A DNA stretch of 64,000 nucleotides from Vulcanimicrobiota bacterium (GCA_050250895.1 JBFWNU010000001.1:160001-224000), one strand, 5' to 3'. Positions 40,571 through 55,939 are shown, numbered from the stretch's first letter. A program made the numbers and translations. The notes: a model not told the origin generated them from the sequence alone.

Positions 40571-41146
40571 TTGACAGAAGACGAAAAAGAAAAGGTTTTT
40601 ACCAATCTCGTCCAGCAAAGCTGGCACTACTACGGCGAGCGATTTCGCAATAGAAAGCTCGATGAGGTCCTGTTAGGAGCGGTCATCACCGCCTACGTCA
40701 AGATCGGCTTCATGCTGATCGACCTCAACTCCGACGGCACCAATCACTTCTTGCGCTTCGAAAATCCCGATGACAACACGCGCTTGCTGGTCAAGCTCAA
40801 CAACCTCTCCGAGGATTTCATCTCGGCCAAGGTCCAGGGTCATCTGGCCGAAGTCGAAGTGGGTTACGGCGAGAAGGCCGGCAACATGTCGTCCGTCTGG
40901 AATGCCTTCAAGAACGAGTTCAAAAGCGCGTTCATCCTGACCAATGAGCCAGGCGTGGTGAGCTTTGACGCCGATATCACCGGCGGCTACATCTACGCCA
41001 ACCTGCCCCTGATCCTCAATCTCGACAACTATCTCGAATCGCACTACTCGATCAAGGTCGCCGACCTCACCCGCGACCTCGATTGTGTCGTTCACTCGCT
41101 CCGCAAGTATCTGCGGGGACGTCTCAATATCGCGGCGGGGGTGTAA
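40571..41146 (+). CDS. Hypothetical soluble protein (pair, gene A)
   Basis: 191 aa, GAGGAGG RBS with TTG start, strongly C-ending codons. Confidence 0.8.
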   Translation: MTEDEKEKVFTNLVQQSWHYYGERFRNRKLDEVLLGAVITAYVKIGFMLIDLNSDGTNHFLRFENPDDNTRLLVKLNNLSEDFISAKVQGHLAEVEVGYGEKAGNMSSVWNAFKNEFKSAFILTNEPGVVSFDADITGGYIYANLPLILNLDNYLESHYSIKVADLTRDLDCVVHSLRKYLRGRLNIAAGV

Positions 41147-41147
41147 A

Positions 41148-41690
41148 ATGGGCCTTTTTGAATTGATGCAAAAGTTCTCGCACGGTCGCGAGATGCGCGA
41201 GAGCATGGACGAGATTCTGGTCGGCAAGATCATTGCCGTGATGGTCGACAAAGGCTATCCCGTGCTGGCCATCCGGTCGGATATGGACCGCCAACAGGTG
41301 CAATTCCGCATGGTCGGTGACGAGGTGTTGCATTGCGTGATCATCACGCTCGACCGCAAGACGGCCGGACTCACCGCCAAGGTGGTTGGCAACGTGGCCA
41401 CCCTCACCTTCCAGGCCGAGGTCAAGAACTTCCTGTGTGACCCCGACGACCTGCTGCACATGTACAAGACCGACATCCAGAACATCTTGAAAGTGCCGCT
41501 CATGGGTCAGGTCAAGATCAATCACCAGCTCAACTCGGTCTTCGCCACCACCACCAAGATCATCCGCATCGAAGACGTCGACCGGGGCGGTCTCGAACAC
41601 CTCTCCGGCGAAATCTTCCCCACCATCGACGACCTGCGCGAGAAACTACGCCAGTATAAGAAAGCTTCGACCCTCCAGGTCAACTACTAA
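41148..41690 (+). CDS. Hypothetical soluble protein (pair, gene B)
   Basis: Starts 1 nt after gene A; distant similarity to gene A. Confidence 0.8.
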   Translation: MGLFELMQKFSHGREMRESMDEILVGKIIAVMVDKGYPVLAIRSDMDRQQVQFRMVGDEVLHCVIITLDRKTAGLTAKVVGNVATLTFQAEVKNFLCDPDDLLHMYKTDIQNILKVPLMGQVKINHQLNSVFATTTKIIRIEDVDRGGLEHLSGEIFPTIDDLREKLRQYKKASTLQVNY

Positions 41691-41992
41691 GGAGCTCTCG
41701 CTTCGCTCGAGGGAAAGGAGCGGCCCTTCGGGCCGGGAGAAGGAGCGAACTGAGCTGTCGCTCAGTTCGAGACGAGGCGCCCTCGGCGGCGTAGCCGCCG
41801 CTCCCTGTCGGCCGCAAGGCCGAAATCTCCGGGCGAAGCCCACGGCTCCTTCTCCCGCCGGCGCAGCCGGCGCTCCCCGTCGGCCGCAAGGCCGAAATCT
41901 CCGGGCGAAGCCCACGGCTCCTTTTCCCGCCGACGCAGTCGGCGCTCCCTGTCGGCCGCCAGGCCGAAATCTCGGCGGCGTAGCCGCCGCCC
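41691..41992. repeat. Composite palindromic intergenic repeat (BIME/REP-like), copy 1
   Basis: One 52-bp-type module, 24-bp palindrome at 41746-41769, then a 72-bp-period array (cgaaatct at 41821, 41893, 41965). Confidence 0.9.
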
Positions 41993-42035
41993 CTCGTGCA
42001 ATCGGCCTGCAACGCCCAGGGGTCATAGTGGGGCC

Positions 42036-46539: not shown

Positions 46540-46950
46540 GTGAGACTACTTCTTACACTACTCTACCTGACGGCGGTGGTGGCGGCCGAACCCGCGCCCG
46601 ACAAGCAGGTTGTGGAGGACTTCTACCGGCTCTATCTGGCTCGTTTTGACTCGGCCCGCGAGCCGGCCGAGCTAGAAGAGTTCCTAAGCCAGAGCGCCTA
46701 TGAGCGATTCAGCCAACTGGCCGAGCGACCCGAGCGCTTCCAGCATATGAAGCTCTTTCTGCCCAAAGAGCCCGAAGTGGTCGAGGTCGAGCCTCGAGGC
46801 GAGCGAGTGCTCGTGACCATCCGGGCCAGGGTGCCCGAACCGCGCCAATTCAAGCTGATGCCGGCCACCGGAAGAATCGAGTTGCTGTCCCAAGACGGCT
46901 GGAAGGTCGACCGCGAGGTCTGGACCTTCGGAACGGGGGAAACACCATGA
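46540..46950 (+). CDS. Secreted hypothetical protein (possible NTF2-like fold)
   Basis: Signal peptide, VVEDFY, C-terminal DGWKVD; overlaps the next gene by ATGA. Confidence 0.65.
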   Translation: MRLLLTLLYLTAVVAAEPAPDKQVVEDFYRLYLARFDSAREPAELEEFLSQSAYERFSQLAERPERFQHMKLFLPKEPEVVEVEPRGERVLVTIRARVPEPRQFKLMPATGRIELLSQDGWKVDREVWTFGTGETP

Positions 46951-48017
46951 AACGAGCGATACTCACGATCCTACTGGCCACCAGCCTGGCAGCTGGCGCC
47001 GATCCCTGGGGAATGCGGGCCGGCGGAGCCGCTGGCGACGTGAGCGCCCGACCCCGTCAGGCGCAGATTCCCGCCATTCCGGCCGTGCCCGAAGGTATCG
47101 AGACCCGAGCCCAGGCGGCTCAGTGGATCTCGTCTATTCACCACGAAGACCCGGCCACCCAGAACGCCATGCGGGCCGAGGCGGCGCGCCAAATCGTGGC
47201 CACTCGGGTCGATGTGGTCAACGACGTTTCGGGCTATGCCTGGCAAGTCAACCCCCTCCAGCCTTTGAAATTTTGGGGAGATGGCCTGCATCCCGACGCC
47301 CCCATCCCCACTAGAACCTACGGCGATCGGGCCGAAGCCGTGATGGATTATGCCCGAGGAACCATCAAACCCAAGACTCCCGAGCAACAGCAGAATCTCG
47401 ACTATTGGCGAGAAATCGGCCCTGAACAAGCGGCCTGGGACCTGGGTCTGGGAGCCTGCACCGAGCACGCTCACCTGGTAGCCGAAATCTTGCGCGAGGC
47501 CGGAGTCGAGGTCCAGGTCTTGAACAGCACCAACGGGCACGTCTTTCCGGTGGTCAATCTGCCCCCGGGCGCCGACCCCGACATGCCATGGACCTGGGGC
47601 GACGCCTACATCCCTGACTCCTGGATGGGTCAGGGCCTGACTCCGGAACAAGCCTGGTATAATCATTGGATCTTTGGGACCGGCAGCGGATTCGTGGGCC
47701 TGGGTCCTGGCAACACCAGTCGCGAGCGCCTCTTGGCCCTGGCTCGCTCGATCCGAAACGACGACCCCGACATCATCGACGAATGGCGAGAAATCTGGGA
47801 GAAGTTGCCACCCTCGATCCGCGACCGCTATCCCGAGCCGCCCCGGGCCAACAACAGAATCCAACGCGGCACCATGGGCGGCCAGGGGGGCGGGCAAAAC
47901 GGCTTCACCGGCAGCGGCCCTCGCAACACCGGCAACATCGGAGGCGGCCCCACCGGTGGCCACACCCATCAGGGCGGCCGCGACGTCCCCACCGGCGGCG
48001 GCTGCTCCGGCTACTGA
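46947..48017 (+). CDS. Secreted protein with transglutaminase/papain-like Cys-His-Asp triad and Gly-rich tail
   Basis: Signal peptide; GLGACTEHA, GHVFPVV, IPDSW. Confidence 0.65.
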   Translation: MKRAILTILLATSLAAGADPWGMRAGGAAGDVSARPRQAQIPAIPAVPEGIETRAQAAQWISSIHHEDPATQNAMRAEAARQIVATRVDVVNDVSGYAWQVNPLQPLKFWGDGLHPDAPIPTRTYGDRAEAVMDYARGTIKPKTPEQQQNLDYWREIGPEQAAWDLGLGACTEHAHLVAEILREAGVEVQVLNSTNGHVFPVVNLPPGADPDMPWTWGDAYIPDSWMGQGLTPEQAWYNHWIFGTGSGFVGLGPGNTSRERLLALARSIRNDDPDIIDEWREIWEKLPPSIRDRYPEPPRANNRIQRGTMGGQGGGQNGFTGSGPRNTGNIGGGPTGGHTHQGGRDVPTGGGCSGY

Positions 48018-48376
48018 CGGGGAGCAGCCTGCGGCTGAGATTTCGGCCTGCGGCCGACAGGGAGCGCCGGCTGCGCCGTCGAGATTTCGGCCTTGCGGCC
48101 GACGGGGAGCAGCCTGCTGAGATGCCTTGAAGCCGCTCCCGAACTGAGCGACAGCTCAGTTCGCTCCTCTCCCCGCCCGAAGGGCGGCTCCTTTTCCTTC
48201 GAGCGAAGCAAGAGCTCCTTCTCCCCGCCCGCAGGGCGGCTCCTTTTCCCTCGAGCGAAGCAAGAGCTCCTTCTCCCCGCCCGAAGGGCGGCTCCTTTTC
48301 CCTCGAGCGAAGCAAGAGCTCCTTCTCCCCGCCCGCAGGGCGGCTCCTTATCCCTCGGAGCGAAGCGAGAGCTCCT
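48017..48376. repeat. Composite palindromic intergenic repeat, copy 2 (inverted relative to copy 1)
   Basis: Same 24-bp palindrome at 48140-48163; four ~52-bp tandem units to the right (gagcgaag at 48201, 48253, 48305, 48358); the other module type to the left. Confidence 0.9.
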
Positions 48377-48472
48377 CGGAGCGAGCGGTCCGATAGGATA
48401 GGGCCATCGGGCCCGGGTGGATCTCGGACCCAGGCGAGCAGCAGGTTAGGCTAAGAGACAAAGGAGGCTATT

Positions 48473-55592: not shown

Positions 55593-55939
55593 CCGCGGTG
55601 GTGCTTGTTGTGCCCACGCCCGCGGCTTTGTCCGTAGTTGTGGCCGCGATAGCCCCGATTGCTGTAGCCAGTGTTGCAGGCCCCCTGGTTGGAATAGCCC
55701 TGATTATAGTAACCCTGGTTGTAATAACCCTGGTTGTAGTTGGTCTGATAATAGCTATTCTGACCGTGGTTGCAATACTGCCCGTGCTGGTTGCAGTAGT
55801 AATAGCCCGGAGGGCACTGGCCTTGATAATTGCCCCTGTTACCGCCCAGGTCGAGCCGAATCTGAAGGCGCGGCTCCGCCGAAACGGCGCTGGTAAACAA
55901 GGCAACCATCAGAGCCAGAACGGAAAAACGAAACCCCAT
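55574..55939 (-). CDS. Small secreted Gly/Tyr/Asn/Gln-rich protein
   Basis: Signal peptide ending AVSA; tandem YNQGY repeats (15-bp DNA repeat). Confidence 0.65.
   Translation of the reverse strand: MGFRFSVLALMVALFTSAVSAEPRLQIRLDLGGNRGNYQGQCPPGYYYCNQHGQYCNHGQNSYYQTNYNQGYYNQGYYNQGYSNQGACNTGYSNRGYRGHNYGQSRGRGHNKHHRGHGCRR

Follow-up and report, generated by a model that had tools for sequence, protein, structure and literature searches.

Modular arrays of tagged mini-hairpins in a Vulcanimicrobiota genome: a candidate lineage-restricted variant of the REP, BIME and REPIN repeats

Few features of bacterial genomes have, to our knowledge, gone unexplained for as long as the REP-type repeats, for whose spread the RAYT transposase is the only well-supported driver. 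BOX of Streptococcus pneumoniae, with its boxA-boxB(n)-boxC layout, and the mycobacterial MIRUs are also modular intergenic repeats with variable numbers of internal tandem modules, and MIRUs lie between genes, where they abut stop codons. We know of no GNA-loop rule, tag-linker grammar or divergent two-arm layout in BOX or MIRU, which by their description are set apart from the repeats considered here. The catalogued REP superfamilies of Di Nocera et al. 2013 are defined by the tags GTAG and CGTC, and the CGTC class, too, is without a dedicated transposase (PMC3733652). A separate precedent lies in the folding of DNA itself, where a GNA or GNNA loop closed by a C-G pair gives a stable mini-hairpin (PMC3201870; PMC13037366). 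Such mini-hairpins are described at single-strand priming sites of phage G4, at ssiA of RSF1010 and in the hairpin promoters of phage N4 (PMC13037366).

The repeats described here occur at two loci in the window, a 64,000-nt stretch of the genome of a Vulcanimicrobiota bacterium (GCA_050250895.1 JBFWNU010000001.1:160001-224000). The parts of both loci are collected in Table 1. At locus 1, a first-pass annotation had reported a composite repeat that begins at the base after a stop codon and ends at 41992. Its start is exact, with GGAGC directly following the TAA codon, while its end falls a few bases short, since the element reaches about 41999. The 10-bp-stem palindrome with two module types reading away from it is present as described, with a minus-strand arm to its left and a plus-strand arm to its right, and the quoted hairpins (ggcggcGTAgccgcc, gggcGAAgccc, gccggcGCAgccggc and ggccGCAAggcc) are all found in the sequence. 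The palindrome is CGAACTGAGC-TGTC-GCTCAGTTCG. Its loop is TGTC as read on the plus strand; on the minus strand the loop becomes GACA, so that the palindrome is itself a cGNNAg module, and CTCC comes after it on that strand. On the plus strand arm A appears as repeats of GGAGC, the last of which overlaps the palindrome by one base. In arm B, Tandem Repeats Finder (TRF) places 2.8 copies of a 72-nt unit at 41787-41985 with a score of 326. The three hairpins of this unit are TCGGCC-GCAA-GGCCGA, CCGGGC-GAA-GCCC(AC)GG and GCCGGC-GCA-GCCGGC, and the final hairpin of the arm lies at 41973-41989. A 22-nt module core has four matches in the window, where 0.01 are expected, which confirms that the repeat is far beyond chance.

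Table 1. Parts of the two composite elements in the window (positions counted from the first base of the window; a dot marks a feature assigned to neither strand)
Feature	Position	Strand	Description
TAA stop codon	41688..41690	+	closes the upstream ORF 41085-41690; repeat element (GGAGC) begins at the next base, 41691
Arm A, locus 1	41691..41746	-	one 52-nt unit made of two modules
Arm A module 1, locus 1		-	GCTCC-TTCTCCC-GGCCCGAAGGGCC
Arm A module 2, locus 1		-	GCTCC-TTTCCCT-CGAGCGAAGCGAG
Central palindrome, locus 1	41746..41769	.	10-bp stem, perfect
Junction segment, locus 1	41770..41799	+	first plus-strand hairpin, ggcggc-GTA-gccgcc, at 41785-41799
Arm B, locus 1	41800..41999	+	72-nt unit x2.8, three modules per unit
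Arm B, locus 2	48018..48139	-	about 1.5 copies of the 72-nt unit
Central palindrome, locus 2	48140..48163	.	loop GACA on plus strand, CTCC directly after it
Arm A, locus 2	48163..48380	+	52-nt unit x4.1 (TRF 48163-48376)

Locus 2 has the same three parts in the reversed orientation, and its arm B begins 0-3 nt past the TGA stop codon (48015-48017) of the ORF at 46947-48017. The palindromes of both loci belong to a class, named ACT after its variable stem positions, that carries TCAG on each strand; the GTT class does not carry it. The window also holds a tandem repeat of a different kind at 55683-55740 (about 55640-55830), with a 15-nt unit of the CCCTGGTTGTAATAA type, TRF scores of 77-88 and a locally AT-richer composition. 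Its minus strand would read as a low-complexity sequence rich in Tyr, Asn, Gln and Gly, which suggests a coding repeat.

Modules throughout the genome follow one order: a pyrimidine-rich linker, a hairpin closed by a C-G pair around a GNA or GNNA loop, and a GCTCC tag. The recipe first proposed from the window (GCTCC, a pyrimidine-rich linker, a short GC stem and a G-N-A loop) is borne out by a census of all perfect hairpins with a stem of at least 4 bp and a loop of 3-4 nt in the genome (9.5 Mb, 17 contigs, 63% GC). CTCC lies within 14 nt upstream of 4.2% of all 219,989 hairpins. The same holds for 280 of the 871 cGCAg hairpins, 246 of 1333 cGAAg, 72 of 667 cAAAg and 36 of 359 cGTAg, and CTCC flanks these four types on both sides 204, 146, 40 and 17 times, respectively. 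For the 36 other loop types listed, the count with CTCC on both sides is 0-14, and for 25 of those it is 0-3. GCTCC stands immediately 3' of the hairpin in 272 of the 634 CTCC-preceded hairpins. The spacing from tag to tag is mostly 17-29 nt, and no fixed helical phase, as in a protein-binding array, was seen in it. The palindrome obeys the same grammar: when it is read in the direction that gives a G..A loop, GCTCC comes directly after it in 36 of 42 cases, and a GCTCC array lies to its right within 150 nt in 40 of 42.

The loops of these modules are GCA, GAA, AAA and GTA triloops together with GNNA tetraloops, all of them closed by C-G. AAA triloops are known from older NMR work to satisfy the rule for DNA mini-hairpins as well. 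The repertoire fits the stable-DNA-hairpin rule that had been invoked for the window (PMC3201870; PMC13037366). Triloops far outnumber the GNRA-type tetraloops, with counts of 280 for GCA and 246 for GAA against 10 for GAAA and 9 for GCAA. Since the loop repertoire is that of the DNA rule and GNRA-type loops are rare, folding of the C-rich DNA strand is favoured, and by this rule the folded form would be single-stranded DNA in preference to RNA.

The stems are held together by compensatory changes. The two pairs of changes noted at the outset are both present: gccgGc/gCcggc against gccgAc/gTcggc within locus 1 (41856-41872 and 41928-41944), and GGCCC/GGGCC in locus 1 against CGCCC/GGGCG in locus 2. 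For a wider comparison, copies of the 72-nt unit were gathered by BLAST, blind to pairing, which gave 41 near-full copies, 37 of them distinct; 26 near-full copies of the 52-nt unit were also found by BLAST. Pairing was tested on the three hairpins of the 72-nt unit in a MAFFT alignment. Paired cells make up 94.4% of this alignment against 87.3% in shuffles, and two-sided changes occur in 7 pairs and 45 cells against 3.8 and 14.3; none of 500 shuffles reached the observed value in either case, though the copies are related to one another and these figures are therefore not probabilities. When the structures were slid by 1-3 columns, pairing was at most 42.7%. In the palindrome, the search pattern left three stem positions free on each arm, and 38 of its 45 matches are perfectly complementary at these positions, with 17 in the ACT class, 15 in GTT, 3 in ATT, 2 in GTC and 1 in GAT. 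Both the 72-nt unit and the palindrome thus covary.

The genome contains 549 modules in 121 arrays of at least two modules each, which together occupy 17.2 kb, and 114 of the arrays are intergenic. The 72-nt and 52-nt units are found at about 22 and about 20 loci, respectively, so that the first-pass proposal passes its own test, that more than these two copies exist, and the copies in the window are members of a non-autonomous repeat family, as had been supposed. Gene positions were taken from a crude in-house caller based on ORFs and codon usage (7530 genes, 87% coding) and are approximate. Within one arm the modules run head to tail in a single orientation, which switches once per element, at its centre. 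Of the 52 regions with two or more copies of both tags, 49 have GGAGC to the left of GCTCC on the plus strand. The element is thus a pair of chains that diverge from a centre, often the 10-bp palindrome, and the C-rich strand with the GNA loops always runs 5' to 3' outward. Array orientation is associated with GC skew (Fisher p = 0.002), but the arrays are clustered and each element holds both orientations, so no weight is placed on this association. The cumulative GC skew itself has its minimum on the first contig (G000:C1) at about 1.12 Mb, a candidate replication origin; the strand bias of genes does not follow the skew, with plus-strand genes in excess on both sides of this point.

The arrays fill the intergenic regions that contain them. 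The 85 array-bearing regions have a median length of 615 nt, against medians of 60-136 nt for array-free regions, and a median of 71% of their sequence is DNA that is repeated in other array-bearing regions. At the 104 ends that face a stop codon, a median of 1 nt of unique DNA precedes the first repeat, and 75 of these ends have at most 10 nt; at the 66 ends that face a start codon, the median is 70 nt. Regions between convergent genes are enriched among those with arrays (30 of 85; background, 853 of 5386) and regions between divergent genes are depleted (11 of 85 against 1339 of 5386), with co-directional pairs accounting for 44 of 85 against 3194 of 5386. No bias in the type of stop codon was found at array-adjacent stops (p = 0.29). 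Array ends are ragged, stopping at different points of the linker beside stop codons, and no target-site duplication was found in the 50 junctions listed. In both respects the arrays are unlike a cut-and-paste transposon.

Two other readings were considered and dropped. A polarity relative to gene sense was suggested by runs whose tail lies within 40 nt of a stop codon (50 of 129, against 1 of 129 for the head); this bias is accounted for by the divergent two-arm layout, and tails also face start codons. A coding repeat is ruled out by the unit lengths of 64 to 74 nt and by the covarying stems.

Two further repeat arrangements were observed outside the window. An array with a period of 84 nt, in which each unit consists of a palindrome and two modules, is found at the end of one contig (G000:C2:984423-984708) and at the start of another (G000:C6:1-466); since it lies at both contig ends, the assembly break was probably caused by the repeat and the two contigs are probably adjacent. 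A gene-free stretch of 1.8 kb (G000:C4:74778-76577) contains a tandem repeat of about 40 nt (cgcggggtgaacccggtttcggccccttcaccccgagaa type), which alternates three times with a GTT-class palindrome and CTCC modules at periods of about 395 and about 596 nt.

The placement of the arrays also bears on a reading in terms of RNA, in which they would be bidirectional transcript-end structures between genes, acting as terminators, insulators or 3'-end protectors. A transcript that crossed an element would read the purine-rich GGAG arm, the palindrome and the complementary CUCC arm in turn and could fold into one large branched hairpin. Ribosomes terminating at a stop codon could also be slowed by hairpins placed there, an effect reported for REPs of E. 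coli that lie no more than 15 nt from an ORF. The enrichment between convergent genes, the depletion between divergent genes and the median of 1 nt between stop codon and repeat are all consistent with such a role. Many REPs lie downstream of ORFs and are plausibly transcribed (PMC3733652), and those that follow an ORF by 15 nt or less are presented as candidates for translational control (PMC12306157). Folding energies fit either nucleic acid, with z = -6.9 for locus 1 as DNA and -6.5 as RNA relative to shuffles; in the predicted fold the two arms pair around the palindrome, purine linkers on one side with pyrimidine linkers on the other. The energy models used may miss the special stability of GNA and GNNA loops. 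A loose scan for a hairpin followed by a T-run on the CTCC strand passes three arm-A modules as possible terminators; most linkers are mixed C/T (78% C+T overall) and are not U-tracts. Selection for RNA stability would be expected to give GNRA or UNCG tetraloops, and the loops are instead overwhelmingly C-G-closed GNA and AAA triloops. Stem mismatches compatible with G.U pairing are not in excess on either strand, but with G.T to A.C counts of 10 to 6 in the 72-nt alignment and 5 to 1 in stems genome-wide, mismatches are too few to tell an RNA fold from a DNA fold. The 7455 array-free genes, moreover, have no stop-proximal hairpin or GGAG signal beyond a slight excess of GGAG, and hence nothing that the arrays would replace. 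On this evidence we consider a primary role in RNA the less likely reading.

How the elements came to occupy so many sites can be approached from the identity among their units. Copies of a unit that share an array are 92.8% identical (39 pairs), whereas copies from different arrays are 76.0% identical (781 pairs; 22 array bins). The higher identity within arrays indicates an old dispersal of composites followed by local tandem amplification or homogenisation. It would also be expected of neutral satellites, generated by slippage and unequal exchange only, with no dedicated mobility and no function. Variable copy numbers, tag spacing without a fixed helical phase, ragged array ends and the one array that breaks the assembly between C2 and C6 can be read in the same manner. 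However, the three-module 72-nt unit and the composite of B arm, palindrome and A arm recur at many unlinked loci, and slippage in place cannot yield a composite shared by unlinked loci. Neutral drift is also at odds with stems that stay paired across 24% divergence by compensatory changes, and with a rule for loop and closing pair that is kept genome-wide. We regard a purely neutral origin as very unlikely, and infer mobility of the elements from the units that are common to many loci.

Other genomes yielded little that is comparable. The palindrome pattern has 35 matches in this genome and none in 60 relatives, including a genome of the same genus; in 185,579 species genomes it has 11 scattered single matches in unrelated taxa, which we take to be chance. 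A loose pattern of the module grammar has 463 matches here against 92 for its control, while in the 60 relatives the matches mostly do not exceed those of their own controls and never number more than 60. A strict pattern has 37 matches here and one in 400 other genomes of the phylum. With locus 1 as the BLASTN query, 57 places are found in this genome, and elsewhere only matches with E > 5e-4. Two patterns tried on JGI metagenome contigs and two tried on viral contigs have no matches, and BLASTN finds no match in plasmid and phage collections. Rfam has no match at the gathering score in the window and none on the elements at E up to 1, and no description of such hairpin arrays was found in the literature searched.

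Two relatives bear on single sites. The first, in DNA contigs of a sludge metagenome (run X1), has flanking genes that are about 90% identical. Contigs of this relative break off at the stop codon (41688) and continue from 41968, and many short contigs of high depth cover the repeat; the hairpin family is therefore present in this relative, probably at the same site. The same-genus genome, G001, has about 66-69% DNA identity. Its contig begins 100 nt upstream of the orthologue of the downstream gene, with no modules within those 100 nt, and synteny is not conserved at locus 2 and at C1:3.09 Mb; these comparisons yielded no filled site with an empty counterpart. Elsewhere in G001 (L031:1501-1531, on G001:C204) a lone module-like sequence, CTCC-CTGT-CGGCC-TCAA-GGCCG-AAA, lies shortly after the end of a gene; it is similar to module one of the 72-nt unit but has a TCAA loop, and may be a relic or a precursor. 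On the genomes and metagenomes compared, the hairpin family is so far restricted to this lineage.

The layout of a hairpin plus a tag, with inverted arms, resembles REP and REPIN, and a single-strand nuclease directed by a tag would need one after every hairpin, as is seen here. The first-pass annotation had proposed that the modules are REP- or REPIN-type substrates for an HUH tyrosine nuclease (RAYT or TnpA-REP), the gene for which would lie elsewhere. This genome, 99.64% complete, has no match to Y1_Tnp (Pfam PF01797), the domain of IS200/IS605 TnpA and of the RAYTs, in a search whose control matched in 6 of 14 genomes. Profile searches of the genome also gave no relaxase, no TnpB zinc-ribbon domain and no RVT_1 reverse transcriptase; a Y2_Tnp search gave no matches, but its control matched nowhere either, so that this search carries no information. 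Four genes have arrays on both sides, namely a peptidase M13, a luciferase-like monooxygenase, a 23S-rRNA-intervening-sequence (IVS) protein and a 192-aa protein without a Pfam family, and none of the four contains a transposase domain. The tag, in addition, is neither GTAG nor CGTC, which define the catalogued REP superfamilies (PMC3733652). With Y1_Tnp, TnpB, relaxase and RVT_1 all absent, the HUH proposal is left without support, and we consider it highly improbable.

Two observations were made in the course of these searches. The 9.5-Mb genome is unusually poor in common mobile-element genes, with counts of zero for Y1_Tnp, the TnpB zinc-ribbon and RVT_1 and one for IS110-type elements, the single IS110 copy being distant from all arrays. 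The array-flanked 23S-rRNA-intervening-sequence protein, of 124 aa (G000:C8:174162-174536; L068:763-1137, minus strand), matches PF05635 with E = 1e-31 and has a weak bAvd-like match, in a genome that is without RVT_1.

Taken together, the evidence makes it probable that these are lineage-restricted, modular extragenic hairpin repeats that work like the REP, BIME and REPIN elements of Proteobacteria, though on a different building plan, kept for their folding as single strands, dispersed first and then amplified locally. Composite elements would have been scattered among intergenic regions, after which each array would have grown and shrunk in place by tandem duplication or by unequal exchange between the repeated tags. 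The hairpins would be retained because the C-rich strand must fold when it is single-stranded, and the repeats would survive only where they are harmless, downstream of genes; read-through transcripts there would carry them as a large branched stem-loop. The copying agent would be something other than a Y1 HUH enzyme (RAYT/IS200) encoded in this genome.

A related but unlikely variant is that the arrays are a new kind of replicator made of single-stranded DNA hairpins, or descend from one and serve the host as a signal, with no HUH/Y1 enzyme involved and with growth outward from a seed palindrome. The site of each addition would be next to the GCTCC tag behind a hairpin, and the chains would extend on both strands as far as the stop codons on either side. 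What is recognised would be the GNA/GNNA mini-hairpins, resistant to SSB, and the factor that recognises them could be a novel enzyme or the replisome itself. Mini-hairpins that mark priming or transcription starts on single-stranded DNA are described for phages and plasmids (PMC13037366).

A strict grammar, a fixed inside-out polarity and a sharp boundary at the stop codon, in a genome that lacks genes for RAYT, TnpB and reverse transcriptase, make these repeats a clean case for spread without a known enzyme. The family also allows a test of which folded form is selected, single-stranded DNA or RNA. In practical terms, assemblies break at the arrays, and intergenic regions that carry them are about five- to ten-fold longer than others, a point of consequence for the annotation of this uncultured lineage.

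Although these repeats share many features with the described systems, they combine them in a distinctive way. Like REP and BIME, they are short (20-40 bp) GC-rich palindromic extragenic units of high copy number, which for the most part follow ORFs and are over-represented where neighbouring genes converge or run co-directionally. They are also species-specific, with complementary stem changes and an unpaired tag beside the stem. However, the tag is GCTCC, 3' of the hairpin on the strand with the GNA loop, instead of GTAG or CGTC; C(T/C)GTC is found only in the first hairpin of the 72-nt unit, partly inside the stem. The stems are 4-7 bp with GNA triloops, as against 8-9 bp with loops of 4-5 nt for the CGTC repeats, and head-to-tail chaining, here by pyrimidine linkers, is called negligible for that class (PMC3733652). 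BIMEs alternate REP orientation with conserved linkers, whereas here two chains diverge from one centre, with one switch per element. Fixed terminal inverted repeats with a target-site duplication, as in a MITE, are absent, the units abut without the unique spacers of a CRISPR, and no Rfam family matches them.

With the REPIN-RAYT system the repeats share two inverted hairpin-bearing halves, which here pair through their linkers in the predicted fold, and a non-autonomous nature with inheritance and amplification in one lineage (PMC3116915, PMC3337134). Each half here, however, is an array of variable length built from unlike units (52 nt and 72 nt) rather than one REP, and there is no cognate RAYT (Y1_Tnp) gene. 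The closest likeness in the hairpins themselves is to the DNA mini-hairpins d(GCGNAGC) and d(GCGNNAGC) of Hirao and colleagues, which follow the same rule for loop and closing pair (PMC13037366, PMC3201870); the rule holds for the tip of the palindrome, GC-GACA-GC, and for most of the module tips. The known natural cases are single origin or promoter signals of phages and plasmids, whereas here hundreds are chained in a chromosome. Because the tag differs, no RAYT is present, the modules run in head-to-tail chains and the loops are those of DNA mini-hairpins, these arrays are best placed beside the catalogued families as a new variant of the REP/BIME/REPIN kind.
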